Positions 4,476 to 46,386 of a DNA stretch of 64,000 bases are shown here, in pieces. The stretch spans positions 8,159 through 72,158 of the forward strand of contig VMGD01000002.1 of NCBI GenBank assembly GCA_007376405.1. Direction: 5' to 3'. The position numbers were made by a program, and so were the translations under genes. This DNA comes from Microgenomates group bacterium Gr01-1014_7. Lineage in GTDB: Bacteria > Patescibacteriota > Microgenomatia > Daviesbacterales > UBA10151. The stretch's first letter is position 1; each line of letters starts with the position of its first letter. The notes under the pieces were generated by a model, which worked only from the letters and a program-made list of their open reading frames with translations, did no database searches and was not told the origin of the DNA.

Positions 4476-6041
4476 ATGGAACAAACTGCCTTTAACAGTA
4501 ATAATTCGCAAAAATTCTTTTTATATGCTCGCAAGTCTACAGATGTAGAAGATAAACAAATGCGGTCTATTCCGGATCAACTGTTAGAACTAAGGGAATA
4601 TGCCAAGCGTGAAGGATTATATATTGTTGAAGAGCTAACAGAGGCTAAAACTGCTAAGGCTCCGGGTAGAGTGGTTTTTAATAGTATGCTTTCTAGAATA
4701 GAGAATGGTGAAGCGGAAGGTATTGTAGCTTGGCATCCGGATAGACTTGCTCGTAACAGTATAGATGGTGGGAAAATTATTTACCTTCTTGACCTTGGGA
4801 AACTTAAAAACTTAAAGTTTCCCCAACATTGGTTTGAAAATACTCCTCAAGGTAAATTTTCCCTTAATATGGCTTTTTGCCAAAGTAAATACTTCGTGGA
4901 CTCGCTTTCAGAAAATACCAAAAGAGGAATCCGCCAAAAAGTTAAAAGGGGTGAAATGCCAGGACTTGCACCAGTAGGTTATTTAAACATAATGACTAAT
5001 AACAGGAAAATTATAGTCATTGATAAAAAGCGTGCTCTTATTATAAGACAAGCTTTTGAAATGTTTGCTACGGCTAAATATCGTATTCAAGATATTTGCA
5101 ACTTTCTGGCTGAAAATGGCATGGCAAAGGCCAGTGGTAAGCTTTGGAAGAGCGATCGGGTAAGTAAGCAGATACTTTCCAATCCTTTCTATTACGGCCA
5201 TTTTAAATATATGGGCGAGATCCACGAAGGGGTTCATCAGCCAATCATTACAAAGAAACTGTGGGACGCAGTCCAAATCGTGTGGAGGAAGCGAAGTCAT
5301 TCCTGGAAAGAGATGAGACCACAAAAACCTTTAACAGGACTTTTTCGTTGTGGTGAGTGTGGTATGATGATTACCGCCGAACTCCAAAAAGGCTACATAT
5401 ATTATCGTTGTACGAAAAAGTCTAAGGTAAGATCCTGTTCTCAGTTATATATTCGGGAAGAAGAGTTAGATCGACAATTATCAGATCAAATAGCCACAGT
5501 TTCTTTGAGGCAGGATTGGGCAGATAAAATGTTGGCTAAGTTATCGATAGAGGAAAAAAATGTAGCCCAATCCTGTGATATGTTTGTTGGAGAAAAGCAA
5601 GCAGAGATTAAATCTATCAATGAAAAACTCCAAAGACTCCTTGATTCTTATTTAGAGCAAGACATCGAGCGTGAGGATTACCTTGTTAAAAAAGCAGATT
5701 TGCTTGCTTTAAAGAAAAAATTAGAGGAACAAATTTTATCTTTCCAACAAACCAAAAATGCTTGGCTCGAACCAATGAAACAATGGATAGTGGAAGCCGC
5801 CGCGGCGGCTAATATCGCAAGAAGTAAAGACTTAAATGCAAAAAAGGTACTTGCTCAAAAAATCTTCGGCTCGAACCCCACACTAAAAGACAGAAAGGTA
5901 TATTGCAACGCTCTAAACATATGGTCCGCCCTACGGGCGGACCCGCCAACTCGGGACTCGGAGCCGACAGCGGGAATTGAACCCGCGACCCCGTTCTTAC
6001 CAAGAACGTGCTCTACCACTGAGCCATGTCGGCAGAAATGA
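4476..6041 (+). CDS. Large serine recombinase (resolvase/invertase-type N-terminal domain, recombinase domain, zinc ribbon and coiled coil)
   Basis: The N-terminus FLYARKSTDVEDKQ carries the catalytic Ser. A zinc-ribbon CGECG...YYRC and a long coiled coil follow. The last ~26 codons run antisense through tRNA-Thr, so the true stop may be functionally irrelevant. Confidence 0.85.
   Translation: MEQTAFNSNNSQKFFLYARKSTDVEDKQMRSIPDQLLELREYAKREGLYIVEELTEAKTAKAPGRVVFNSMLSRIENGEAEGIVAWHPDRLARNSIDGGKIIYLLDLGKLKNLKFPQHWFENTPQGKFSLNMAFCQSKYFVDSLSENTKRGIRQKVKRGEMPGLAPVGYLNIMTNNRKIIVIDKKRALIIRQAFEMFATAKYRIQDICNFLAENGMAKASGKLWKSDRVSKQILSNPFYYGHFKYMGEIHEGVHQPIITKKLWDAVQIVWRKRSHSWKEMRPQKPLTGLFRCGECGMMITAELQKGYIYYRCTKKSKVRSCSQLYIREEELDRQLSDQIATVSLRQDWADKMLAKLSIEEKNVAQSCDMFVGEKQAEIKSINEKLQRLLDSYLEQDIEREDYLVKKADLLALKKKLEEQILSFQQTKNAWLEPMKQWIVEAAAAANIARSKDLNAKKVLAQKIFGSNPTLKDRKVYCNALNIWSALRADPPTRDSEPTAGIEPATPFLPRTCSTTEPCRQK
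5962..6033 (-). tRNA. tRNA-Thr (anticodon GGU)
   Basis: The reverse complement folds as a canonical cloverleaf: acceptor GCCGACA/TGTCGGC, D-arm GCTC-AGTGGTA-GAGC, anticodon loop TTGGTAA, T-arm GCGGG-TTCAATT-CCCGC, discriminator T. No CCA is encoded. Confidence 0.75.
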
Positions 6042-6112
6042 GCCTCCTGGCAGAATCGGACTGCCGTCATATGTTTACAAAACATACGCACTAACCACTG
6101 TGCTAAGGAGGC
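6041..6112 (-). tRNA. tRNA-Thr (anticodon UGU)
   Basis: The reverse complement gives acceptor GCCTCCT/AGGAGGC, D-arm GCAC-AGTGGTTA-GTGC, anticodon stem TATGT/ACATA with loop TTTGTAA, and T-arm GGCAG-TCCGATT-CTGCC. The T-loop is atypical (C at position 55). Confidence 0.65.
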
Positions 6113-6169
6113 GTAGAATATATTCTACCAGTTTTCAGTTATCAGTTTCTAGTTTACAATGAATTTATA

Positions 6170-6406
6170 GTGACTCAATTATCAAACAAGTATCCTTTGG
6201 AAGAAAGAACAGCAAAATTTGGTGAAGATATTATTAAGTTTTGTAGAGTCTTAAAAGTAGATACAATATCCTTACCTCTTATAAGCCAACTTGTAAGGTC
6301 AGCAACTAGTATAGGAGCAAATTATATGGAAGCTAATGCAGCAAGTTCAAGAAATGACCTTGATATGCCAAAAGATTACTTCAACATTAAGAGGGAAATA
6401 GTTTAA
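6170..6406 (+). CDS. Four-helix-bundle protein (23S rRNA IVS protein/TIGR02436-like), apparently C-terminally truncated
   Basis: The motif SIGANYMEANAASSRNDL matches the family signature (S.I..NIAEG..R.S..DF). It is only 78 aa against ~115-125 for the family. Confidence 0.45.
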   Translation: MTQLSNKYPLEERTAKFGEDIIKFCRVLKVDTISLPLISQLVRSATSIGANYMEANAASSRNDLDMPKDYFNIKREIV

Positions 6407-6764
6407 TTACTCAGTAATTGATAACTGAGAACTTATTGAAAATTGAAAAATGTAAACTAAAAATTAAATAAGTACTCCCTACTATAGTCGTTAAGCCAAT
6501 TATTTTCCCCCTAAATTGAGGTGGGTGTCCTGGTCCGATAGAGATACTCTCATCGGACACTTCGAACTCCCTTAAAGTAACAAATATCGAAGAAAAAACT
6601 TTGGCTTTTAAACGTGCAAAGCAGGGATCAGGCAGAGCCTGGGTCCCTTAGGCCATCTACTAAATGTCCTTTAGGATAATTTAACAGTAGCACTAAAATA
6701 AATCTCTTGTCAAGGGGTTAAAACTTGACAAAAGATTATGTGTATGCTAATGTGTATGTGTATG

Positions 6765-7004
6765 TTAAACAGAAGAACAAATTTCCTTTTAAATAAGGAT
6801 GTATTGGATAAGTTGGTTAAACTTTCCCGGACTCGCAATATTTCTATGGCAGAGGTTGTTAGAAGAGCAGTAGAAAAAGAGTATGAGGAGGAAAAAGAGC
6901 TGGAAACAAGAAAGAAAGCAATAGATGCGACCCTAATGGGAAGATTAATGTCTAAAGGTAAAATTGATTACAAAGAGCTGATTAATTATGGCCGCAAATA
7001 TTAA
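6765..7004 (+). CDS. vapB: Ribbon-helix-helix (CopG/VapB-like) antitoxin
   Basis: It is a small RHH-like N-terminus. It overlaps the downstream PIN-domain gene by 17 nt. The start was chosen at MLNRRTN after the TGTGTATG microsatellite. Confidence 0.55.
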   Translation, partial: LNRRTNFLLNKDVLDKLVKLSRTRNISMAEVVRRAVEKEYEEEKELETRKKAIDATLMGRLMSKGKIDYKELINYGRKY

Positions 7005-7380
7005 AAAATACATTGTAGATGCTTCTTTTGTTCTTTCCTTTTTACTTCCCGATGAAAATCACCAAGAGGCAGATTTGTTTTTTAATCAATATAAAGCCGG
7101 CATCATTAATTTTTTATCTACACCGTTGTTGCCTTTTGAGGTGGTAAATGGATTAAAGTTAGCAGTTATTAGAAAAAGGATCAGTTCAAAATACGCAAAA
7201 GAACGAATGAAAGAATTTTTTAATTATCAAATCAGACTTGTGGGCACAGATTTTTTTGAAGTTTTTGACTTGGCCCAGAAGAATAATTTAACTGTTTATG
7301 ATGCATGCTATTTATATCTGTCGAGGATTAAAAAGGCCCAGCTTCTAACATCCGATGAAGCTCTCCAAAAATTAATTTAA
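6988..7380 (+). CDS. vapC: PIN-domain toxin VapC
   Basis: The N-terminal YIVDASFVL.. has the PIN acidic residue. The C-terminal LLTSDEAL matches the typical ..T.D pattern. Confidence 0.7.
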   Translation: MAANIKKYIVDASFVLSFLLPDENHQEADLFFNQYKAGIINFLSTPLLPFEVVNGLKLAVIRKRISSKYAKERMKEFFNYQIRLVGTDFFEVFDLAQKNNLTVYDACYLYLSRIKKAQLLTSDEALQKLI

Positions 7381-8015
7381 AATCCAAGCAGGCCGGAAAA
7401 TAGCCTTACAAAAAAGCTTAAGATCGTTTGCAGAAGAGAGCTTGAGCCAAAAGGAATTATCAGTAAAAGCATCAGAATTAAGAATCCATATGGTTCAATT
7501 CTCTGGTAGCTTTTAGCCATATTAAGGGGAAGTTGAGAAAGCAGTATTTTTGATCCGTCCAGGGGAGGAATGGGAAATAAATTAAATACTCCCAGAACCA
7601 GGTTAATTACCATGGTATAGCGCAAAAGGCTGCCTACTAATGCAGGAAAAACAAAAGGTATGGCATCAAGGAGATGATAAAGCAAGGCTGCAGCAATGGC
7701 CAGAGTGAAATTAGCCAGAATTCCGGCTGCAGAAACAAACAGTTCTCCCTTTCTGATTCTGGAAAAATTTAGCGGATTAACAGGCACCGGCTTGGCCCAG
7801 CCAAAAAGAATGGGGGAGCCGGTTAAAATTAACAGGCCCGGAAGTAAGATTGTGCCAAAAAGATCTATGTGAGGAATGGGGTTTAAGGTTAATCTGCCTG
7901 CATTTGCGGCGGTTCTGTCCCCAAATTTTAAGGCCACCAGCCCATGCATGACTTCATGGACTATGACTGAGAATAAAAGTATAACAATAGATAAGGCTAG
8001 AAATTCAGGGTTCAT
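7377..8015 (-). CDS. Peptidase M50 (site-2 protease family) membrane metalloprotease
   Basis: The motif HEVMHGLVA (HExxH) sits in TM helix 1. The protein has a multi-TM hydrophobic profile and a C-terminal LDG motif. Confidence 0.7.
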   Translation of the reverse strand: MNPEFLALSIVILLFSVIVHEVMHGLVALKFGDRTAANAGRLTLNPIPHIDLFGTILLPGLLILTGSPILFGWAKPVPVNPLNFSRIRKGELFVSAAGILANFTLAIAAALLYHLLDAIPFVFPALVGSLLRYTMVINLVLGVFNLFPIPPLDGSKILLSQLPLNMAKSYQRIEPYGFLILMLLLIIPFGSSSLLQTILSFFVRLFSGLLGF

Positions 8016-8033
8016 TATGTTATATTATCACAT

Positions 8034-8270
8034 ATGTTAGTTTGCAGTCGATGTGGTAAAGGTAAAAATATAATCGCCTATTCAAGGCACAAAAAGGGTT
8101 CCTCCGGTGCCGGAGGAGTATGGGCTTTGCGTGCCCCAATTCACAAAAGAGTCCAGCTTCCGAATCTGCATGCTTATATGGGCAAAAAATACTGCACCAA
8201 ATGTTTAAGGCTGGTAAAAACCCCTTTTCAAAAAGCTAAAGTAGAAGAGCGACCTCAAGCTCAAGTTTAA
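8034..8270 (+). CDS. rpmB: Ribosomal protein bL28-like zinc-ribbon protein
   Basis: The pattern CSRCGK...SRH...KRVQLPNLH resembles bL28 (C..GK..GN.SH..KR.FLPNL). Cys pairs lie at both ends, and there is an insertion relative to E. coli bL28. Confidence 0.45.
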   Translation: MLVCSRCGKGKNIIAYSRHKKGSSGAGGVWALRAPIHKRVQLPNLHAYMGKKYCTKCLRLVKTPFQKAKVEERPQAQV

Positions 8271-8282
8271 TTTGAAAAGATC

Positions 8283-10157
8283 ATGGCATCTTTAGAAATT
8301 TTAACAGCAGAACTCGAAGCACATTCCAGGGGTGGAGTCAACCCAAATCTTACTGTAGGAGCTCGTAACCGTTCACAAAGAAGAAGCATAAAAGACCCGT
8401 TTGCTCGGGAAGCAGAGTCCTGGCTTGCCAGGGGAAACTCACTTGCTGTTGTACTAAATCGAACTCGAAAGCTATTATATGAGAGTGTAATTTTCTTTGA
8501 GCGAGATATCACAAGAATGATTTATCAAGGCAGTCCATTTATAGGGGAATATTTAAGTGCAATACGCAGGCTTCCTGATTTTTTGGCAGAAGCTTCAATG
8601 GCTAATTTGCGCCTAAACTTTACAACTCCTGAAAGTCTGGCCTCAATTGAAACTCAAAACCTGTTTGAAAGATCGGTTGGTGGAATAACTCTTCTTGATA
8701 TTGAAAGGATGCAACTGCCACTTTCATCGGCAGATATAAGCGGAATTAATAGAATATTTTATCCGAGATTAATTGATAGAGTGATCCCTCATAAACTTAA
8801 TCCTTTTAAGGAGGCAGTTGATCATGGCTTGATTCGCCAAGCTGCCATTTTACTTGCTACCCAAAAAATGGCAAGACTTAATGAAAAAGTTAATATCCCT
8901 TCTAATGTACAATCGCTTTATTCCCGCCTGAGCGCTTATTTTGATTATTATACTCACCTGATGACAGATTTTTCTATGGATCAAGTAGAAGATTCAAATT
9001 TTTGTAATATTTTGCTTTGGGGAAGACCGGGACTGCCTCAGTTTTTAGGTTGCTATATCCCGGGACGTTTAGGGATAACCCCTGCCTCAGCCATAAAGCT
9101 TTTTTATGAAAGAGCTCAGAATTCTTACTTGCCTTTTCTTTATTGGGGATCTGATAGAGCTTTAAGAACTCCAATAGGAATTCTTACAAAAGGTGCAAGG
9201 GATGCTTATCCTGGGAACGGATTGCCTGCTGATTTGCAAAAATATTCACACTTCGATCCTCAAATGGACAAAAGTGCTTCTGAGTGGTTGCTTAAATTTT
9301 ATCAAGGGATTGCAAATGAAACGGCAGAAGAAACAGACAGAAAGTTTTTAGGATTAAGAGAGACTATTTTCCAGGATATCCAAAGCGCTCCATCAAAAAG
9401 ACAGGAGGTTACTTTACCGCAAGAGCATACCATAAGAAGGATTGTCTTAGCAAGACAATATCGCCAAACTTTAATGATAATTTTGCAATTTGCAGATAAC
9501 CAAACTCATCTGACTTTAGAACATGCCATGAATTCACCGGATGGTATTGATAAAGAAGATCATGTTTATGGATGGCCGAGAGAGTTGATCAGAGAAAACC
9601 CTCAACTTACCAGTGTAATAGCTACGGATTTATTAGCCAAAATTGTTCAAGATACTTTAAGAAGGCATCCGGAGCAAGAAGTTAAACCCCGCAGGGTTTT
9701 TCCCGGCGAAGCTACTCTTCCTTATTACATACCAAGTTTTCCCCAAGAGTCGGAGGAGATTCGTTTGCCTGTGCTAACAGGGAAAGGAAGACGACACTTT
9801 CCTAAAATATTAACTCCAATTCAACAAGTCCTTGCAGGAGAACCTAATCCACCAGCCCAAAGAGAAAGATTATTAAGAAAGTTTAGGGTAGATTATTCAA
9901 GGACTCAGATTGAGGAGTTTTTACCCAGGAATGCCCCTCAGAATACAATTGATCAACTTATGAAAGCAATTAGGTCGTTTGAATATGGGAGAGGAAACTT
10001 TAAAAGATTCAAAGAAGATCGTACGGAGGGAGAAAGTTTGTGGGAACTTCGAACAGGAGACTATAGACTTCTTTTAAAACATAAAGAGGGTCAGATTTTT
10101 TCTCTAGAGAAAGTAGGTCATAGAAGGGAAATATTTAGTCAACGGAGGAGAGGCTAA
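8283..10157 (+). CDS. Large hypothetical protein with a C-terminal RelE/ParE-like toxin fold
   Basis: The C-terminal ~90 aa, ...GESLWELRTGDYRLLLKHKEGQIFSLEKVGHRREIF, match the RelE/ParE signature (LWELR.GdYRiiY...il.IgHRkdiY). The N-terminal ~530 aa have no recognizable family. Confidence 0.5.
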   Translation: MASLEILTAELEAHSRGGVNPNLTVGARNRSQRRSIKDPFAREAESWLARGNSLAVVLNRTRKLLYESVIFFERDITRMIYQGSPFIGEYLSAIRRLPDFLAEASMANLRLNFTTPESLASIETQNLFERSVGGITLLDIERMQLPLSSADISGINRIFYPRLIDRVIPHKLNPFKEAVDHGLIRQAAILLATQKMARLNEKVNIPSNVQSLYSRLSAYFDYYTHLMTDFSMDQVEDSNFCNILLWGRPGLPQFLGCYIPGRLGITPASAIKLFYERAQNSYLPFLYWGSDRALRTPIGILTKGARDAYPGNGLPADLQKYSHFDPQMDKSASEWLLKFYQGIANETAEETDRKFLGLRETIFQDIQSAPSKRQEVTLPQEHTIRRIVLARQYRQTLMIILQFADNQTHLTLEHAMNSPDGIDKEDHVYGWPRELIRENPQLTSVIATDLLAKIVQDTLRRHPEQEVKPRRVFPGEATLPYYIPSFPQESEEIRLPVLTGKGRRHFPKILTPIQQVLAGEPNPPAQRERLLRKFRVDYSRTQIEEFLPRNAPQNTIDQLMKAIRSFEYGRGNFKRFKEDRTEGESLWELRTGDYRLLLKHKEGQIFSLEKVGHRREIFSQRRRG

Positions 10158-10178
10158 TTATATAAAAATTTGGGAAAA

Positions 10179-10568
10179 TCAGGGTTTAAATCTTTTAATT
10201 TCTTTAATTTTATCCAAGCCTTTATCAAAAGAATAAATAGCTTCAAGCTTTTCCGATTCGCAATATGCTGCTAAATATGCGTCAATAAAGTCAATATTAA
10301 AATTCCGGTAAAAATATAATGTTCTAATAAATAAACTTTTATTTGAGTAAATAGAATTTAGATTTAAGAGATTGTAAATTTTTTCTATTATGTCTTCCCT
10401 GTTGAATTTATAAAAAGATATTAGAACCCAAACTACCTCGGCAATTATCATATCTGATAGGTATAAATTCTCTTCTGAATTTTCTAAAATTGATTTAGCT
10501 TTCTGAAATTGTTTTACATCATCCTTAAGTAAAAAACGCAGTATTAGATTAGCATCAAGAAGTTTCAT
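10179..10568 (-). CDS. vapC: PIN-domain toxin VapC
   Basis: It begins MKLLDANLIL and has a C-terminal FDKG motif. It overlaps the upstream antitoxin by 4 nt. Confidence 0.7.
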   Translation of the reverse strand: MKLLDANLILRFLLKDDVKQFQKAKSILENSEENLYLSDMIIAEVVWVLISFYKFNREDIIEKIYNLLNLNSIYSNKSLFIRTLYFYRNFNIDFIDAYLAAYCESEKLEAIYSFDKGLDKIKEIKRFKP

Positions 10569-10849
10569 TTAAAATTGGGTCTATATTTTTTAGGTAAGGT
10601 TTTAATATATTCGTCTGCTAACATTTTGCCAACTGCTTCAAAAGCTTTTTTCCTATCCCATTTAATATTAGTTTTTAAAGAGCCGGCTAATTCATTTATC
10701 AGCTGACTATTAGTTTTAATTACCAATTGACCATTTATATCTTCAAAAATAATTTTATCACCTGGCTTAATTCCAAATTTTTCTCTCATTTGGTTGGGAA
10801 TAGTGGCCTGACCTTTAGTAGTAACAGTGGAGCTGTACGTATTAAACAT
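10565..10849 (-). CDS. AbrB/MazE/SpoVT-type antitoxin
   Basis: It has a swapped-hairpin motif, GQATIPNQMREKFGIKPGDKI. It is the first gene of an operon with the PIN gene, and a TTGACA-17-TATAGT promoter lies upstream on the minus strand. Confidence 0.65.
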   Translation of the reverse strand: MFNTYSSTVTTKGQATIPNQMREKFGIKPGDKIIFEDINGQLVIKTNSQLINELAGSLKTNIKWDRKKAFEAVGKMLADEYIKTLPKKYRPNFK

Positions 10850-10949
10850 AGTATTACTACTATACCATAAGTATTACTTTTTGTCAAGGGTAATACAGGG
10901 CAAAAATTTGACATTTGCCTTTTTTTTTTGCTATAAATGAAGAGAAATT

Positions 10950-11198
10950 TTGGGAGGTGACATTAAGTTTATGGGGGAAAAAGATAAGAAATATTATCCG
11001 AGTGAACCTTATACTGGTTTAAAGCAAAAGGCAATCAGAGATACGTATAGAGATTTATCACCGGACGAAAAAGTACTGGTGGATAGGTTACTTTATAGAG
11101 TGTTGGACTTACATATAAGAAACATGGGGATTGTGTCCGCGCTTGAGATTGTTGGGTCGATTGCTATTACGCTGGTAGAAAATCCTCAGTTAAAGTAA
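10950..11198 (+). CDS. Hypothetical small protein
   Basis: ORF only; no recognizable motifs. Confidence 0.3.
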   Translation: MGGDIKFMGEKDKKYYPSEPYTGLKQKAIRDTYRDLSPDEKVLVDRLLYRVLDLHIRNMGIVSALEIVGSIAITLVENPQLK

Positions 11199-14935: not shown

Positions 14936-16000
14936 ATGTTGAATAAGCTTTGGAGTTATTTTGCCCATGATGTGGGTATAGATTTGGGTACAGTTAATAC
15001 TCTGGTTTTAGTTAAAGGTAAAGGAATAGTAATCAGAGAACCAACTGTGGTGGCACTTCATAAAAAAACCAGACAAATTCTGGCCATAGGCGGGGAAGCC
15101 AAAAGAATGCTGGGTAGAACTCCCGCGGCAATTGAGGCGGTTAGGCCTCTGCGCGACGGGGTAATTTCCGATTTTGACACCACTGAGGCTATGCTTCGCT
15201 ATTTTATTCACAAAGTTCATGACAGTCCCTCAAAGGGTAGATTTTCTTTGCCCAAAATTCCCAAGCCCAGAGTGGTGGTGGGGATCCCCTCGGGTGTGAC
15301 AGAAGTGGAAAGAAGAGCTGTTCAGGATGCCTGTTTGTCAGCCGGAGCAAGAGAGGCTTTTTTAATTGAAGAACCAATGGCCGCGGCAATTGGGGCAAAA
15401 CTGCCGGTGGAGGAGCCGGAAGGGGTGATGGTGGCGGATATTGGAGGGGGCACCACGGAAATTGCAGTGATTTCCCTGGGAGGTATGGTTTTAAACAGAT
15501 CTTTGCGGGTGGCCGGGGATGAGATGGATGAGGCAATTGTTTCTTATATGCGGGTGAGATACGGTATGCTGATTGGAGAAAGAACTGCCGAGGATGTAAA
15601 AATTGAAATCGGTTCAGCTTACCCTTTGGAAAAACATGATTCGGCCGCCACGGTAATCCGGGGCAGAGATTTGGCCTCCGGTTTGCCAAAATCCATTAAA
15701 GTCACTGCTTCAGAAATAAGGGAGGCCTTAACTCCGATTGTCTCCCAAATTATCTCAAGCATACATGAAGTTTTAGAGGAGACTCCGCCCGAGCTTTTAA
15801 CAGATATAGTGGAGCGGGGGATATATCTGGCAGGAGGTGGAGCGCTTATCAAGGGTTTGGATAAAAGAATTGCCGAAGAAACCAAACTGCCGGTGTATGT
15901 TGCAGATGATCCGTTAACAACGGTAGTTAGAGGCTGCGGTGAAGTATTAGACAATCTGGATTTATTATCAAAGGTAAAAGTGACAGGTGGACTTCGTTAG
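14936..16000 (+). CDS. mreB: Rod shape-determining protein MreB
   Basis: The actin-fold motif GIDLGTVNTLV is present, with DIGGGTTEIAV. Confidence 0.9.
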   Translation: MLNKLWSYFAHDVGIDLGTVNTLVLVKGKGIVIREPTVVALHKKTRQILAIGGEAKRMLGRTPAAIEAVRPLRDGVISDFDTTEAMLRYFIHKVHDSPSKGRFSLPKIPKPRVVVGIPSGVTEVERRAVQDACLSAGAREAFLIEEPMAAAIGAKLPVEEPEGVMVADIGGGTTEIAVISLGGMVLNRSLRVAGDEMDEAIVSYMRVRYGMLIGERTAEDVKIEIGSAYPLEKHDSAATVIRGRDLASGLPKSIKVTASEIREALTPIVSQIISSIHEVLEETPPELLTDIVERGIYLAGGGALIKGLDKRIAEETKLPVYVADDPLTTVVRGCGEVLDNLDLLSKVKVTGGLR

Positions 16001-40897: not shown

Positions 40898-41143
40898 ATG
40901 ACATATTTAGTTTCTGTGACATCACAAGGGCAAATCAGTATTCCGGCCAGATTCCGAAGAGAATTAGGCTTGGAAAAAACTAAAAAAGTTGTTGTTTCAA
41001 AGGAAGGTAACAAATTAAGCATAGAGGCAGCTGATGATTTATTGTCTTTGGGTGGTATATTTAAAACAAATAAGAAAATTCCATTTAAGAAGATACGCCA
41101 AGGTTTTGAAGAATATTTAGCTAAAGAGGCTACTGGTGTCTAA
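40898..41143 (+). CDS. AbrB/SpoVT-type antitoxin
   Basis: It has a swapped-hairpin motif (QGQISIPARFRRELGL) and overlaps the PIN gene by 8 nt. Confidence 0.6.
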   Translation: MTYLVSVTSQGQISIPARFRRELGLEKTKKVVVSKEGNKLSIEAADDLLSLGGIFKTNKKIPFKKIRQGFEEYLAKEATGV

Positions 41144-41540
41144 AATGAAAGTATTAGTTTTAGACACTAATACTTTACTACGCTTCTTATTAGATGATGT
41201 TCTCTCTCAGACTAAAGAAATCAGAAAGAAAATAGAACTGGCAAAGTTAGGTAAAATAAAATTAGTTGTACCCCAGATTGTCGTATTTGAGATTGTTTAC
41301 GCTCTCACAAAAGAGTATGGTTTTAAGATTGAAGAGGTGATAGGAGTTTTAAGAAGACTATTAATTAACAAAGATTTACAGATTCAGGATGAGGATATAT
41401 TTGAACAGACCTTAAGAATTTTTTCCAAGAAATTGAGTTTAGCTGACTGTTTTATCTATTTCTTTGCCAAGAAAAATAACGCAGAACTTTTTACCTTTGA
41501 TAAAAATTTGCAAAAAGCTTTTAGAGCTACTAGCCTCTAA
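41136..41540 (+). CDS. vapC: PIN-domain toxin VapC
   Basis: It has VLVLDTNTLLRFL and a C-terminal TFDKNL. Confidence 0.7.
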   Translation: MSKMKVLVLDTNTLLRFLLDDVLSQTKEIRKKIELAKLGKIKLVVPQIVVFEIVYALTKEYGFKIEEVIGVLRRLLINKDLQIQDEDIFEQTLRIFSKKLSLADCFIYFFAKKNNAELFTFDKNLQKAFRATSL

Positions 41541-41565: not shown

Positions 41566-43281
41566 ATGAAATATTCAAGACTGTTTGGGAAAACTATTAA
41601 AGATACGCCAAAAGATGCCAGTTTAATTTCCCATAAACTGCTTTATAAGGCAGGATATATTAGAGAATCTACAGCCGGCAGGTATTATCTTTTGCCTTTA
41701 GGCTTGCGGGTCCAGCAAAAAATCCAGGCAATTATTAAGCAGGAATTGGATAAGGCCGGAGCCCAGGAAATAATTACCCCAATACTTCACCCCAAAGCTC
41801 TATGGGAAGAAACAAACAGGACCAGCTCGGTAGGTTTTGAGCTAATGACTATTAAAGATAGAAACGAAATGGAGTTTGTTTTAGGTGGTACGGCAGAAGA
41901 GATGATAGTAGATTTAGTTCGAAAATTTCAGCTAAGTTATAAAAATTTACCCTTTCACATTTATCAATTCTCAACCAAATTCAGAGATGAACTGCGCGCC
42001 CGGGGCGGGTTATTGCGACTGCGTGAGTTTTTAATGAAAGACGGCTATTCTTTCCACGACTCAGAGGAGGATTTTAAAAGGGAATATCAAAACATGATGG
42101 ATACTTACACCAAAATATTTGAAAGGGTGGGATTAACCCCCCAAATTGTAGAGGCAGACAATGGGTATATTGGCGGGGAATACTCTCATGAATTTGTGGT
42201 GGAATCGGATGCCGGAGAGAGTAGGTACTTTACCGATGGAGAATACTTTGCGCATGAGGATATAGCCAGCTTTACCCTGGATAACGCGAGCAGTGATGAA
42301 GAGATGAAGGGAGTGGAGGATGTTGAGGGTAAAGGCATTATCGGAGTTGAGGGACTTGCAGAGTATCTTAAGATTCCTGTTGAAAAAACAACAAAGACAA
42401 TTTTATTTGAAACAGATACGGGCAGAATAATTGCCGCGGCTGTCAGAGGCGGATTTGATATTAATGAGGAAAAACTTGTAAAAATTGTAGGTTGTAGATT
42501 ATTAAAACTTGCTTCAGCAGAGGTAGTTAAGAAAATAACTGGTGCAAAAGTTGGATATGCGGGAGTATTGAACTTGCCCAAAGAAGTAAAGATATATTTT
42601 GATGAGTCTTGCGCTAACAGGCGGAATTTTGAAACAGGGGCAAACAGGACAAATTTTCATACTATTAATGTTAATTTTGGACGCGATCTGCCCCAGCCCG
42701 AACAGTTTTATGATTTCAAAATTGCTAAAGAAGGATTTATCGGTCCAAACGGCCAAAAACTGGTTGCTAAAAAGGGAATTGAAGTAGGTAATATTTTCCA
42801 GCTGGGTTTTCATTATTCTTCAAAAATGAAAGGGGCGCAGTTTATAGATGCTGACGGAAAAAAGAAACCTTATTATATGGGCTGTTATGGAATTGGTCTT
42901 GCCAGAACTTTGGCAGCTATAGTTGAGGTCAGTAATGATGATAAGGGGATAATTTGGCCGGAGGCTGTTGCACCTTTCATGGTTCATATAGTAGGTCTTG
43001 ATATGGATGATTCTTCAGTGAAGAATGAAGCGGAAAGAGTATACAAGCTTTTACAGGCAGAAGGAATAGAAGTTTTATTTGATGATAGAAGCGGGGTTTC
43101 TGCAGGAGAAAAATTTGCCGACGCCGATTTAATTGGCATTCCATACAGGGTGGTTATTTCTAAAAAAACCCATTCGACAAGCTCAGGGCAAGCAAAAGAT
43201 AAATTAGAAGTTAAAAAAAGAAATGAAAAAGAAACTAAGTTTTTAACTTTTGAAGAACTACTAAAAATAATTCAAAGTTAG
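41566..43281 (+). CDS. proS: Prolyl-tRNA synthetase (bacterial-type with editing insertion)
   Basis: Class II motifs are present: RPRGGLLRLREF-like (ELRARGGLLRLREF) and GCYGIGLAR. It has a C-terminal anticodon-binding domain. Confidence 0.9.
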   Translation: MKYSRLFGKTIKDTPKDASLISHKLLYKAGYIRESTAGRYYLLPLGLRVQQKIQAIIKQELDKAGAQEIITPILHPKALWEETNRTSSVGFELMTIKDRNEMEFVLGGTAEEMIVDLVRKFQLSYKNLPFHIYQFSTKFRDELRARGGLLRLREFLMKDGYSFHDSEEDFKREYQNMMDTYTKIFERVGLTPQIVEADNGYIGGEYSHEFVVESDAGESRYFTDGEYFAHEDIASFTLDNASSDEEMKGVEDVEGKGIIGVEGLAEYLKIPVEKTTKTILFETDTGRIIAAAVRGGFDINEEKLVKIVGCRLLKLASAEVVKKITGAKVGYAGVLNLPKEVKIYFDESCANRRNFETGANRTNFHTINVNFGRDLPQPEQFYDFKIAKEGFIGPNGQKLVAKKGIEVGNIFQLGFHYSSKMKGAQFIDADGKKKPYYMGCYGIGLARTLAAIVEVSNDDKGIIWPEAVAPFMVHIVGLDMDDSSVKNEAERVYKLLQAEGIEVLFDDRSGVSAGEKFADADLIGIPYRVVISKKTHSTSSGQAKDKLEVKKRNEKETKFLTFEELLKIIQS

Positions 43282-43826
43282 GGAGCTACAGCTGATAAGG
43301 GTCTACAGATTGGGTAAAGTCCATCTACATAAGGGACATTTTTTATATGGCTACGCTGATACCAGACTTTAAGTTCCACACCTTCGAGTCTTTCTTGCGA
43401 TTTGGTATATGCATGTACCCGTAATGTTCTTTCCGGATCTGGAGTAATTGGTTGATTTCCGGCAGAAAGGACTAACCTTAAGGATCGTCTTTGGCGGGTT
43501 CCAATCCATGCATATTTAAAATCCTTTAAATCCACTGTATCAACTATAACTATGCTCGGTGAGGCTTCAAGGTCAATCCAAAAATGTCCCAATAAACCAT
43601 GATGTCTTGTGTACTCTCTTACTTGTTTACTTGTGGGTACTAATAAATGTGCCTTATTAATAGCACCTTCTCCATATTGAGAATTATAGGCAGCAACCAG
43701 TCCTGCTCTTGCCTCTGTTATCATATAAGAACGAATAATAGTGATTATAGGTTGTTTTGTCAAATCTAATCTTAAATGAAACTTGACAAGGTGTATAAAA
43801 AGTGTATACTTAGTATATATGAACAC
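43278..43826 (-). CDS. Hypothetical protein (Arg/His-rich). It is compositionally distinct from its neighbours
   Basis: ORF only. The GC content is higher than the surroundings. The real start is possibly the internal Met MITEARAGL. Confidence 0.35.
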   Translation of the reverse strand: MFIYTKYTLFIHLVKFHLRLDLTKQPIITIIRSYMITEARAGLVAAYNSQYGEGAINKAHLLVPTSKQVREYTRHHGLLGHFWIDLEASPSIVIVDTVDLKDFKYAWIGTRQRRSLRLVLSAGNQPITPDPERTLRVHAYTKSQERLEGVELKVWYQRSHIKNVPYVDGLYPICRPLSAVAP

Positions 43827-44130
43827 TGCTGTAATAAATATTAAAATTGAACCGAAGATTAAAAGGCAGGCCCAGACTGCGGCGGAGGAAATGGGTATTA
43901 GTTTAAGTTCCCTGATTAACGGGTTTTTAAAACAGATTATTAAAACAAAAACTTTTACTTTTAGAGCCGCGGAAGAGCCTTCGGAGTATTTTATTCAGTC
44001 AATGAAAGAGGTTGAAGAAGAAATCAAAAATGGCTGGGTTTCTCCTACTTTTGATAACTCCGAGGATGCCATAGCCTGGTTGCATGATCCAAAGGCTAAG
44101 TATGCAAATCAACTTCGCAAAAAAGTTTAA
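43819..44130 (+). CDS. dinJ: RelB/DinJ-family antitoxin
   Basis: The N-terminal RHH-like INIKIEPKIKRQAQTAAEEMGISLSSLINGFLKQI is typical of DinJ/RelB. Confidence 0.6.
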   Translation: MNTAVINIKIEPKIKRQAQTAAEEMGISLSSLINGFLKQIIKTKTFTFRAAEEPSEYFIQSMKEVEEEIKNGWVSPTFDNSEDAIAWLHDPKAKYANQLRKKV

Positions 44131-44374
44131 AAAACGCTACGATAAGGCCGATGTTAAGATAAGAACAGCATTTGACAAGAGATTTGCAATTTTTCTACAA
44201 GACCCGTTTTATTCTCTGCTTAATAATCATGCATTAACAGGCAAATATGCCGGATCACGCAGCATTGATGTGACAGGTGACTGGAGAGCTATTTTTTCGG
44301 AACATATGGATGAAAAAGATAACAAAGTGATTATTTTTGAACTTCTGGGGACCCACAGCGAGTTGTACAAATAA
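44084..44374 (+). CDS. yafQ: YafQ/RelE-type mRNA interferase toxin
   Basis: LTGKYAGSRSIDVTGDWRAIFSE...IIFELLGTHSELYK matches the YafQ pattern (L.G.y.g.recHI.pDwlLIY....l.L.RTGtHsdLF). Confidence 0.65.
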   Translation: MIQRLSMQINFAKKFKKRYDKADVKIRTAFDKRFAIFLQDPFYSLLNNHALTGKYAGSRSIDVTGDWRAIFSEHMDEKDNKVIIFELLGTHSELYK

Positions 44375-44409
44375 GAGCTATAAAAACCCTGGGAGGGTAA
44401 TGAGTAAAT

Positions 44410-46083
44410 TTACCTTTGTGAACGTTCTAAATATCTATTAGCAATATCATCAGTAACTTGTAAAAGGTTTACTCTTTCAGGATGAGCATCCATCTCATCA
44501 AGAATAGCCATTATATCCTCTTTTACTTCGTCTATAATTAGTCTGTTTAATTTATCAGGATCATATTTTAAGAAGTTACCTTGTATTCCACAACCAGTAA
44601 AACGTATAACCTGTAGGATTAAAAATGGAATAGCAGAATCTGGAACCGTTTCATACACAGGTTTTTTGCCAAGTGCTGATAGAGTTTGAAATAACTTCTC
44701 TTTTGTCCACCTGGCAAGATATCTTCTAACATCATCACTTCCTATATCAGGTATATCAGCAGCTGATCTTGTTTCAGAAAAGAAATTTGGTGTTGGTCTG
44801 GAGGGTTGGTAAATTCTGGGTTGAGGTTCTGGAGTGGAAGACGGTCTTGTGGAGATTTGTCCAGGTTGACTTTGAATTGTACCACTGACTCTATCGGTTG
44901 TAGAAGCTACTTTTAGTTCCTTGATTTGGTTTTCTAATGCTTGAACCATTTTAGCCAGCACATCTCTTTCTGAAGCAACCTGATCCAGTTGTATTTTTAA
45001 ATTATCTCTTTCATCTTCTGCTCCTTGAGCTCTGGCAATAGCTTCAGCCAGTTGAACTGTCAAACTATTCACTTCAAGCCTTGCAGGTTTTCTTATATTC
45101 CTTCTGCCGTATACCAGTTCCACTTCTTCAGTTCTCCACGTACCTGATTCAAAAATAGCTCTGATTTCATCTGGAGTTTGTACGCCTCTTCTTACAACTA
45201 CAGATACAAGCTGTTTTGTGTCATCAACGGTTAAACTCTCTTTCAAGATAGCTTCTGCTAAAGTATTTTGTAGATCATATCTATGACAAAGAGTAGGGGG
45301 TCTGGATATATTAGCTAAATGTTCGCCTGTTAAAGCTGTCAAGTGGTTTCCGCTTTTTCTTTCTCTAACGCTTTTTACCAATTCAGGATCGGCAACATCT
45401 GCTATCTTAAGCATAACATAGGCGATATTTGCACCAATGCTACATCCAGAGCAGCTCTGATCAACCCAGTCTCTAACTTCTAGAACTTGAGTAGGTGTAA
45501 GGTGTAAATTTTTGCCTGTTGAGCGTTTGGAATATCTAAGTATAAAAGCTTGTGTAACTGTCATGCCTAAGTCGATCCAAGGAGTTAATTCCCAGCTATC
45601 ATGCAAGTACTGAACCATTCTGGGAAATCTGACAGAAGGATGATCTTTTGTGGCTGAAATTCGGTACTTAACTATTTCTTGGCGCGTGCAATCGGGTTTT
45701 ATTGCCGCATAAGCAAATTGCTCATTCTTCCCTCTTAATATTTCCAGTCTATGAAGTCCATCTGTAGGATCAAGCAGCGGGTGACCTCGCACTTCGCCTA
45801 ATGTAATTTCAGATGCTTGGCCTGTTGTATATGTATTCGGGTTTGCCTGTCTTGTTTCGTCTTTTGCCTCATCAAATAGATTGGAAAGAGAATCAATGTG
45901 ATTATGATCCACTGGCAGTTTGGGATCGTCAATCAAATCTAAAGGGACATATCCATCATAAAATGGAAGTCGGGCATGAACCAATAAAATTCGTCTATCA
46001 TTAAGAATGGAATCAGAAGGAAAAGTTGGGCGAGGATCTAATGTAGCAATAGAAGTATAGAAATCTAATTCAGCAATTGCCAT
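44410..46083 (-). CDS. Large hypothetical protein with a possible ParB/Srx-like (DGxHR) N-terminal domain and a central coiled coil
   Basis: The motif LLDPTDGLHRLEILRG is present. A coiled coil runs LAEAIARAQGAEDERDNLKIQLDQVASERDVLAKMVQALENQIKELK. It has higher GC and Arg content than flanking genes. Confidence 0.45.
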   Translation of the reverse strand: MAIAELDFYTSIATLDPRPTFPSDSILNDRRILLVHARLPFYDGYVPLDLIDDPKLPVDHNHIDSLSNLFDEAKDETRQANPNTYTTGQASEITLGEVRGHPLLDPTDGLHRLEILRGKNEQFAYAAIKPDCTRQEIVKYRISATKDHPSVRFPRMVQYLHDSWELTPWIDLGMTVTQAFILRYSKRSTGKNLHLTPTQVLEVRDWVDQSCSGCSIGANIAYVMLKIADVADPELVKSVRERKSGNHLTALTGEHLANISRPPTLCHRYDLQNTLAEAILKESLTVDDTKQLVSVVVRRGVQTPDEIRAIFESGTWRTEEVELVYGRRNIRKPARLEVNSLTVQLAEAIARAQGAEDERDNLKIQLDQVASERDVLAKMVQALENQIKELKVASTTDRVSGTIQSQPGQISTRPSSTPEPQPRIYQPSRPTPNFFSETRSAADIPDIGSDDVRRYLARWTKEKLFQTLSALGKKPVYETVPDSAIPFLILQVIRFTGCGIQGNFLKYDPDKLNRLIIDEVKEDIMAILDEMDAHPERVNLLQVTDDIANRYLERSQR

Positions 46084-46128
46084 TAATTAGATTATATATT
46101 GAATTGTCAAATATTGTAGAATAATGCT

Positions 46129-46386
46129 ATGTCTGTAGAATCTGTAGCAATTGATAGATTTCCAATGCCCGGTGAACCCTCAAGTGCTTATAGGGGGTGG
46201 ACTTTGGCAAGGCCTGAATTTGACTCCAGCAAAAGCGGATTAGAGCGAATAAGAAATAACCAAGCAGGAGCATTGAAGGAGTTGCGGAAACTAACGCTGA
46301 ATGACATTGGAAAGGATGTAGAACCCGCATATCCTGTGGGAAAGTCATACCATCAGGTAAAATTAGATTATCATCATTTTAATTAA
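46129..46386 (+). CDS. Hypothetical small protein
   Basis: ORF only; it is divergent from the 557-aa gene. Confidence 0.25.
   Translation: MSVESVAIDRFPMPGEPSSAYRGWTLARPEFDSSKSGLERIRNNQAGALKELRKLTLNDIGKDVEPAYPVGKSYHQVKLDYHHFN

Follow-up and report, generated by a model that had tools for sequence, protein, structure and literature searches.

A ParB-fold DNA-binding protein of a Microgenomates bacterium, a candidate nucleotide-gated regulator from a family with sigma-factor fusions

We analysed a 64-kb stretch of DNA (the window) from Microgenomates group bacterium Gr01-1014_7, a bacterium of the candidate phyla radiation (CPR). One of its genes, orf557, encodes a protein predicted to join a ParB/sulfiredoxin-type nucleotide-binding domain and a ParB-type helix-turn-helix (HTH) DNA-binding domain. 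We propose that this protein is an orphan ParB-family dimeric DNA-binding regulator gated by a nucleoside triphosphate (NTP), similar to KorB, VirB and BisD, and we put the probability of this reading at about 0.55. An earlier note on the same DNA had called the 557-residue open reading frame (ORF) and placed it in a horizontally acquired defence or partition-related island. The frame is open as called (Table 1), and the evidence below points to a regulatory protein whose relatives mostly carry a sigma-factor module.

The assignment of the fold comes from structure prediction and profile comparison. The AlphaFold2 model of orf557, based on a 67-member family alignment, has predicted local distance difference test (pLDDT) scores of 93-98 across residues ~20-320. 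When this model was compared with the PDB using Foldseek, the top 34 matches were all ParB-family proteins, including Noc, ParB bound to cytidine tri- or diphosphate (CTP/CDP), KorB, Spo0J, pNOB8 ParB and PadC. Noc (7ol9, 7nfu) ranks first, and the best entries also include 7bnk, 6t1f, 1vz0 and KorB (8qa8, 8qa9). Noc, ParB, KorB, Spo0J and pNOB8 ParB-N align over ~255-305 columns, which correspond to the N-domain and the HTH domain; PadC and then, lower down, sulfiredoxin (Srx) and SerK match the N-domain alone. Identity in the structural alignments to ParB-like regulators is 10-15%, and all matches in the viral structure library BFVD are phage ParB-like proteins. The 67-member family profile also has a match to SerK (E 5.5e-5), which falls precisely on the Box I loop and the P-motif: the profile stretch 'spvlLgevpgedkfkIiDGFHRtaal' aligns with SerK 'KPMLLAKVPGEDMYLIVDGHHRWAGL', with 'IiDGFHR' opposite 'IVDGHHR'. 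This match spans 38 residues, which is the common nucleotide-binding motif only. The N-terminal motif singled out by the earlier note, LLDPTDGLHRLEILRG, is present in orf557. Residues Q89, D108, G109, R112, R141 and R155 are invariant in the 67 family members, H111 is conserved in at least 90% of them, and a conserved Box I loop, G88-Q89-x-S, precedes the GxxR-type P-motif. Together, the fold matches, the SerK alignment and the invariant residues confirm the ParB/Srx assignment that the earlier note had proposed from the motif. The model shows residues ~30-165 in a predicted ParB/sulfiredoxin nucleotide-binding fold with an intact P-motif, and residues ~166-320 as a predicted ParB-type HTH DNA-binding domain.

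Sequence searches did not recover this relationship. We found no family match for orf557 in Pfam, PADLOC, PHROGs, NCBIfam or PDB sequences, only sub-threshold coiled-coil noise, and a profile of four sequences gave no significant match in the PDB. The ParB_N model of Pfam (PF02195) has no match at E<=1 on orf557, and a rescan of the family members P0002-P0004 gave none; precomputed PF02195 matches, rated 'faint' or 'weak', are found in P0004 and P0008. We take this miss as a limit of model sensitivity, and the fold evidence is not contradicted by it. Beyond the DNA-binding domain, the model continues with a long helix, a disordered linker that differs in length among orthologues, and a C-terminal helical domain (Table 1). 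The earlier note had described a long coiled coil following the motif; the prediction has one long helix (residues 339-396), but this comes after the helical DNA-binding region of ~200 residues and not directly after the motif. A Pfam scan of orf557 found no ParB C-terminal dimerisation domain, and there is no DUF262, DndB, DUF1524, HNH or other nuclease domain at E<=1 in Pfam or in the AlphaFold2 model.

The high structural rank of Noc raises the possibility of a Noc-like nucleoid-associated or chromosome-organising protein, which would load at specific sites and then spread along DNA or bridge it, instead of acting as a gene-specific transcription regulator. The coiled coil and the disordered linker would suit bridging or condensates, and orf557 is an orphan gene with no partner, as such a reading would have it. 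However, the gene shows presence/absence variation among close relatives and relocation, which would be unusual for a core organiser, and the sigma module in most family members points to transcription; the model has no N-terminal amphipathic membrane helix, though no test was aimed at one. We regard this alternative as unlikely. The SerK match brings up another one, in which orf557 is no DNA-binding switch but an enzyme like Srx, SerK or SbnI that acts as a small-molecule or protein kinase/ATPase. This is highly doubtful, as the SerK match is limited to the nucleotide-binding motif, the C-terminal substrate domain of SerK is absent, and a ParB-type HTH, the most conserved part of orf557, follows instead. 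Sulfiredoxin, SerK, SbnI and PadC are enzymes or adaptors without an HTH, whereas orf557 embeds the fold in a DNA-binding multidomain protein.

The N-terminal architecture, a nucleotide-binding domain followed by an HTH, is the same as in ParB/Spo0J and Noc, and this could suggest a canonical partition ParB (Spo0J) working with ParA and parS. The earlier note had entertained a partition-related module; the canonical reading is largely refuted and hardly credible. There is no adjacent parA, and the ParA-type Walker motif KGGxGK[ST] is absent from every ORF of the 64-kb window. The P-motif of orf557 is DGLHR and not the arginine patch GERR, the ParB C-terminal dimerisation domain is lacking, and neither dnaA, gidB nor an origin-type context lies near the gene. 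In addition, the gene is missing from the syntenic locus of a close relative and lies elsewhere in another, and it has no plasmid or phage relatives.

The family provides the second line of evidence for a regulator. An exhaustive search with a profile of the first 335 residues of orf557, clustered at 50% identity, yielded 489, 423 and 199 cluster representatives at E<=1e-3, 1e-10 and 1e-30, respectively, mostly 500-600 residues long; the figure of 489 clusters is a lower bound for the family. A word-indexed search found three relatives with orf557 as the query, and the close trio only with the 67-sequence alignment. One relative, P0004, is 40% identical to orf557 over residues 41-316. Pfam recognises sigma domains in many of the 67 members (Sigma70_r4_2 in 24/67, r4 in 13/67, r2 in 10/67), and GerE in 3/67. 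The C-terminal half of the family profile matches extracytoplasmic function (ECF) sigma factors from sigma2 through sigma4 (E 2.4e-7), and sigma2-like and sigma4-like segments are recognisable after the ParB module in the family alignment. These comparisons show that most family members fuse the ParB-N+HTH module to a full ECF-type sigma2-sigma4 module. An N-module profile gives 305 bits on orf557 and 355-438 bits on sigma-fused members, by which the module common to both is judged to be homologous.

In the window protein itself, the sigma module is missing: Pfam gives no sigma match, the family sigma-like hidden Markov model (HMM) scores 4 bits, and the hhalign probability is 0.4%. An HMM of the family C-termini scores 132 bits on P0004 and 4-10 bits on the window protein, P0002 and P0003. 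In a six-frame test, the sigma-like C-terminal HMM gave 104-174 bits at all six other loci tested and no match in the window or at L001, the locus of P0002. By these scores, the window protein, P0002 and P0003 (from locus L004) make up a small sub-branch without the sigma module, which is replaced by the coiled coil, the disordered linker and the helical domain. A LuxR/GerE-like resemblance of the P0002 C-terminus was considered and rejected as faint and unsupported.

The named source organisms of the family are Microgenomates and Saccharibacteria/Saccharimonadales, and no relatives were found in phage genomes, plasmids or IMG/VR contigs. When loci were searched with conserved stretches, one query gave two Saccharibacteria loci (genome contigs) and another gave 12 loci; the query behind the two Saccharibacteria loci gave zero loci in metagenome and viral contigs. 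There is no orf557 paralogue in the window, and each genome fragment examined has one family copy. We note that the P0003 copy (L004 15-215, 296-1777) is split, with its first 66 codons in a separate ORF ahead of a 493-residue ORF; the split is a frameshift or stop and could reflect a pseudogene or an assembly error. P0050, a family member with a GerE/LuxR-type C-terminus in a CPR genome-scale contig, is directly preceded by a 349-residue Sigma70_r4 protein (E 2.7e-14) without a ParB module (L007 6912-7961, + strand, also L008-L010), which may be a functionally linked sigma-like partner of P0050.

On the proposed reading, orf557 would dimerise through the long helix, its HTH would bind specific DNA, and nucleotide binding at the N-domain would bring two N-domains into engagement, as a clamp or a switch. 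By analogy with KorB, VirB and BisD, the NTP-gated switch would control transcription. The nucleotide may more likely be adenosine or guanosine triphosphate (ATP or GTP) than CTP, a weak preference that we draw from the P-motif, which is GxHR instead of GxRR. According to Dataset S6 of Kaljevic et al. 2025 (PMC12704722), GxHR is found in 4/5 ATP binders (Sigma70 fusion included), in the sole GTP binder and in 1/5 CTP binders. In relatives with a tethered sigma domain, the ParB-N+HTH module would serve to gate or deliver that domain; the window protein would instead use its C-terminal domain to contact a partner. KorB (RK2), VirB (Shigella) and BisD (ICEclc) likewise use ParB-N plus an HTH for gene regulation and not for segregation, and act without a dedicated ParA; the two KorB structures are among our top structural matches. 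These three proteins have GxRR-type P-motifs, bind CTP and are encoded on plasmids or on an integrative and conjugative element, whereas orf557 has DGLHR, is encoded on a CPR chromosome, carries a coiled coil and a further helical domain at its C-terminus, and shows no similarity to them that is detectable in sequence.

Several points weigh against this reading. As described in PMC12704722, nucleotide specificity cannot be predicted reliably from sequence or with AlphaFold3, one GMHR protein binds CTP, and in vitro no nucleotide binding was seen for 17/28 of the purified ParB-fold proteins. The proposed regulatory role is drawn from architecture and relatives, and the window protein is without the very sigma module that motivates the transcription reading. 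PF02195 stays below threshold on orf557, and the C-terminal domain modelled on its own has a pLDDT of 65 and a topology at odds with the full-length model. Finally, the restriction of the family to CPR bacteria rests on few (three) named organisms. A more specific version of the regulator reading, which we consider improbable, is that the CPR family module works by NTP-gated clamp loading at specific sites, delivering or unmasking a tethered ECF-type sigma, and that the window protein is a derived antagonist or a partner-recruiting version competing for the same DNA sites. If this is true, bacteria with minimal regulatory repertoires would control a sigma factor without needing an anti-sigma, and the family, nearly invisible to Pfam ParB models, would be a large class of transcription-initiation factors that had gone unrecognised.

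The ParB-CTPase fold in orphan and fused forms, including ParB-Sigma70 fusions, has already been published (PMC12704722; Kaljevic, Sukhoverkov, Johnson, Hocher & Le, PNAS 2025). Among the proteins described there, GA92 is a ParB-CTPase-fold/Sigma70 fusion construct that binds ATP (PMC12704722). The relatives of the window protein resemble it in that an N-terminal ParB-fold domain and Sigma70 regions are joined in one polypeptide, and both have a GxHR-type P-motif (GEHRVRA in GA92, G[F/L]HR[V/L]xA in the family). They differ in the Box I helix/loop (QERVNMFAQMYLD / KKDVPP in GA92, HVxELAxSI / GQLSP in the family), and the window protein itself lacks the sigma module. Because the Box I sequences are unlike, common descent of GA92 and the family fusions is not established. 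The survey described in PMC12704722 was seeded with PF02195, and it may have missed this family because PF02195 scores family members at best 'weak' or 'faint' and orf557 not at all. What is new here is a sigma-less derivative with a helical C-terminal domain, from a family that PF02195 barely detects.

The idea of an acquired island was based partly on composition, and this check, set beforehand as a possible refutation, places the genes within genome variance. The genes in question were orf557 and a 182-residue ORF (orf182). Their GC contents are 0.386 and 0.375, against a window mean of 0.382, 0.389 for proS and 0.420 for tig, and their z-scores relative to 59 window genes are +0.17 and -0.12. 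The statement that both have visibly higher GC is therefore wrong, as both sit at the window average. Few window genes are lower than these two in GC content at third codon positions (ranks 3 and 6 of 59), and the share of arginine in arginine plus lysine, R/(R+K), is high in both (ranks 55 and 52 of 59); all composition measures of both genes are inside two standard deviations. The claimed arginine excess holds against the flanking genes, with 7.7-7.9% in both genes compared with 4.7% in proS and 5.7% in tig, but R/(R+K) is not outlying. The arginine excess is therefore real but modest. The most extreme 1-kb compositions are at 10001-11000 (GC 0.293) and 15001-16000 (GC 0.477), and both deviate much more strongly than the flagged region. 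Cumulative GC skew climbs almost monotonically over 1-64000, and 45/59 called genes are on the + strand, so the window lies within one replichore; orf557 and orf148 are among its few lagging-strand genes. The only tRNAs of the window are a tandem tRNA-Thr pair (anticodons GGT, TGT) at 5960-6112 on the - strand.

Comparison with related genomes gives a different outline of the variable part. In L013, proS is convergent with a homologue of orf148, the gene to which orf182 corresponds. In L012, the orf148 homologue adjoins tig (84% amino acid identity), across a gap of 342 bp that holds one 86-residue ORF; the corresponding gap in the window is 2,634 bp, and dinJ, yafQ and orf557 are absent from L012. 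The variable segment is ~43772-46128 (~2.35 kb) and contains dinJ, yafQ and orf557. It excludes orf148, which is ancestral, because orf148 keeps its proS (L013) or tig (L012) neighbour without dinJ-yafQ and orf557. What stands of the island claim is thus the presence or absence of this segment between relatives; the average composition and the ancestral orf182/148 speak against the rest. No tRNA lies within 37 kb of the segment, and near it there is no Rfam element and no integrase or recombinase ORF. The sole junction repeat, D1, is a direct repeat of 19/23 nucleotides at both junctions. It was rejected as a target-site duplication, as the left copy is the conserved orf148 promoter and the right copy travels with orf557 in L001; the repeat arises because the two promoters share a TTGACAA box.

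The ten homologue neighbourhoods that we examined differ from each other and are mostly housekeeping. They include rplA/rplJ; cysS..PPDK/adk/eno with an upstream sigma4 protein; lexA with a BsoBI-type restriction-modification pair; two large serine recombinases; a nucleotidyltransferase; DUF4389/OmdA; and others. A membrane protein, LPG_synthase_TM, is the downstream neighbour common to the P0002 (L001) and P0003 (L004) loci. None of the ten contains ParA, a toxin-antitoxin (TA) pair beside the gene, or a recurring defence gene. The serine recombinases (Resolvase/Recombinase/Zn_ribbon_recom) lie on both sides of a sigma-fused member, at L015 46-1374 (+) and 4122-5282 (-); no other context hints at a mobile element.

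These neighbourhoods bear directly on the proposal that orf557 is a defence or conflict ParB/Srx nuclease or NTPase (of the DndB, DUF262/GmrSD or ParB-nuclease type), acting with or alongside dinJ-yafQ. DndB-like proteins, DUF262 (GmrSD) and 'ParB-like nuclease' proteins share a DGxHR-type motif on the ParB/Srx fold, the variable segment lies beside a TA pair, and a BFVD match at rank 13 is annotated 'DNA-sulfur modification-associated protein'; the restriction-modification and recombinase contexts of two relatives may also be read in this way. Nevertheless, we judge the proposal quite unlikely. Profile searches for DndB/DGQHR and DUF262 gave no PADLOC or Pfam match at E<=1, the motif of orf557 is DGLHR where DUF262 has DGQQR, and no nuclease domain such as DUF1524 or HNH accompanies it. 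There are no dnd, BREX, pgl, restriction or nuclease genes nearby, and no defence neighbour recurs across the ten contexts. The full ParB-type HTH domain of orf557 and the sigma domains of its relatives do not fit a defence role either. Because no examined homologous locus has a TA pair beside the gene, dinJ-yafQ is not a conserved partner, and we infer that it is an independent mobile neighbour and not a functional partner of orf557.

The organisation of orf557 suggests how the gene has travelled. A promoter scan found a promoter-like site whose -10 box lies next to the ATG (Table 1), and there is no Shine-Dalgarno sequence ahead of this ATG, so that the orf557 mRNA is probably leaderless. 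Together with a terminator-like hairpin, these predicted signals show a self-contained single-gene unit with its own putative promoter and terminator. The orthologue P0002 (L001 5099-6829) is 71% identical and lies between rplA and rplJ. DNA homology between the window and L001 covers the 33 nucleotides ahead of the ATG and the gene as far as its stop codon, with unrelated flanks, and the relocated unit is therefore the gene plus its own promoter. We observed that this promoter region (46084-46120; L001 5065-5098) is conserved across the two unrelated insertion sites and contains a conserved AT-rich near-palindrome, ATATTTGACAATT(C/G)AATAT, which could be a candidate autoregulatory operator. 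In L001, three genes (5099-8681) stand between rplA and rplJ, namely the orf557 orthologue, the LPG_synthase_TM membrane protein and a dockerin-domain protein; rplA-rplJ is normally contiguous within the secE-nusG-rplKAJL cluster, and this junction is interrupted in L001.

The ratio of nonsynonymous to synonymous divergence (dN/dS) relative to the L001 orthologue is 0.26 overall, 0.10 for the HTH, 0.24 for the N-domain, 0.25 for the C-terminal domain and 0.44 for the linker, the highest of the gene. These values indicate that every domain is under purifying selection. DNA identity is 87% (dS ~0.4) over the first ~1,100 nucleotides and ~70% (dS ~1.2) from the coiled coil on, which implies a putative recombination breakpoint near codon 370, at about window position 44977, and the jump in dS thus suggests a mosaic or recombinant history of the gene.

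Such a history, the split or frameshifted L004 copy, and the presence of gene plus promoter at two unrelated sites between conserved genes (orf148|tig, rplA|rplJ), with homology stopping at the borders, would be expected of a selfish, self-mobilising single gene of a free-standing homing-like kind, in which the ParB-like nuclease/DNA-binding module promotes insertion of its own gene into sites flanked by conserved housekeeping genes. We find this very unlikely. There is one documented relocation only, and the LPG_synthase_TM neighbour common to P0002 and P0003 suggests long vertical residence. Each genome fragment has a single copy, terminal repeats and target duplication are absent (D1 being two promoters), the DNA-binding domain is under strong purifying selection, and the family is dominated by sigma fusions. 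Ranked by descending plausibility, the rivals of the NTP-gated regulator are the Noc-like protein, the defence protein, the selfish homing-like gene, the Srx/SerK-type enzyme and the canonical partition ParB.

Table 1 Positions of orf557, its predicted parts and the neighbouring features in the window
Feature	Position	Strand	Remarks
orf557	44410..46083	-	557 residues; 100% match to NCBI hypothetical protein G01um10147_193
ParB/Srx-type nucleotide-binding N-domain (predicted)	45589..45996	-	about residues 30-165; approximate boundaries
P-motif (Box II equivalent) D108-G-L-H-R112	45748..45762	-	family conservation and SerK alignment
ParB-type HTH DNA-binding region (predicted)	45124..45588	-	about residues 166-320; approximate boundaries
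Long helix, presumed dimerising coiled coil	44896..45069	-	residues 339-396; AlphaFold2 pLDDT ~78-83; dimerising role presumed
Disordered Pro/Gln/Ser/Thr-rich linker	44755..44895	-	residues 397-443; pLDDT <50
C-terminal helical domain, at the position of the relatives' ECF sigma	44413..44754	-	residues 444-557; four helices, pLDDT 70-80 (full-length model)
Promoter-like site of orf557	46091..46120	-	promoter scan, 10/12 matches; -10 TATAAT ends 7 nucleotides before ATG
Terminator-like hairpin	44386..44398	-	5-pair stem then T-run; consensus match only; between convergent orf557 and yafQ
relB/dinJ-type antitoxin	43819..44130	+	PF04221 RelB, E 4.7e-9, 36.5 bits against a cutoff of 22.4; variable segment
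yafQ-type toxin	44084..44374	+	PF15738 YafQ_toxin, E 4.2e-8, 33.8 bits against 30; variable segment
orf148 (orf182 of the earlier note)	43278..43724	-	148-residue NCBI annotation and 3 homologues, 66-73% identity
orf85	46129..46386	+	small ORF immediately ahead of tig; probably ancestral

Among the neighbouring genes, the dinJ/yafQ pair was correctly recognised from the sequence: RelB and YafQ_toxin score above the Pfam gathering scores, in overlapping ORFs between the two minus-strand ORFs. The TTG at 43783 of the dinJ ORF is the -35 box of its own promoter (TTGACA-16-TATACT at 43783-43810), and the gene truly begins with the ATG at 43819; yafQ may start at Met7, at 44102. A second type II TA pair lies at 40898-41540 (+), just upstream of proS, where a MazE/AbrB-type antitoxin (PF04014, E 6.8e-7) overlaps a PIN-domain toxin (PF01850, E 4.7e-17), and TA modules therefore flank proS on both sides.

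The 182-residue ORF at 43278..43826 had been over-extended, as the source annotation and three homologues give 148 residues. The orf148 promoter, TTGACA-N17-TATTAT at 43763-43735, is conserved in L012 and L013, where homologues lie at 1273-1746 and 101-547, respectively. Neither orf148 nor orf85 has a match in any family library (Pfam, PADLOC, PHROGs, NCBIfam). Across four sequences, orf148 has 73 invariant positions, including HHGLLGHFWI and RSLRLVLSAGNQP, and its dN/dS is ~0.4. It was rejected as a partner of orf557, as its homologues occur without orf557 and the 190-residue gene after P0004 encodes an unrelated membrane protein. orf85 and the 86-residue ORF at the same position in L012 share N-terminal similarity in 11/30 residues (pairwise E 5e-4).

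For annotation, these results mean that the region is not a defence island: its composition is normal, of the two 'island' genes one is ancestral, and the neighbouring TA pair is unrelated. ParB-fold nucleotide switches are increasingly seen as a general regulatory module beyond chromosome segregation, and this locus brings to light a large family of at least 489 clusters, so far named from CPR bacteria only, that standard domain models barely catch. If the module gates transcription, it would offer a handle on gene control in ultra-small, regulator-poor CPR genomes, and the forms with and without sigma would be a natural pair for dissecting the mechanism.

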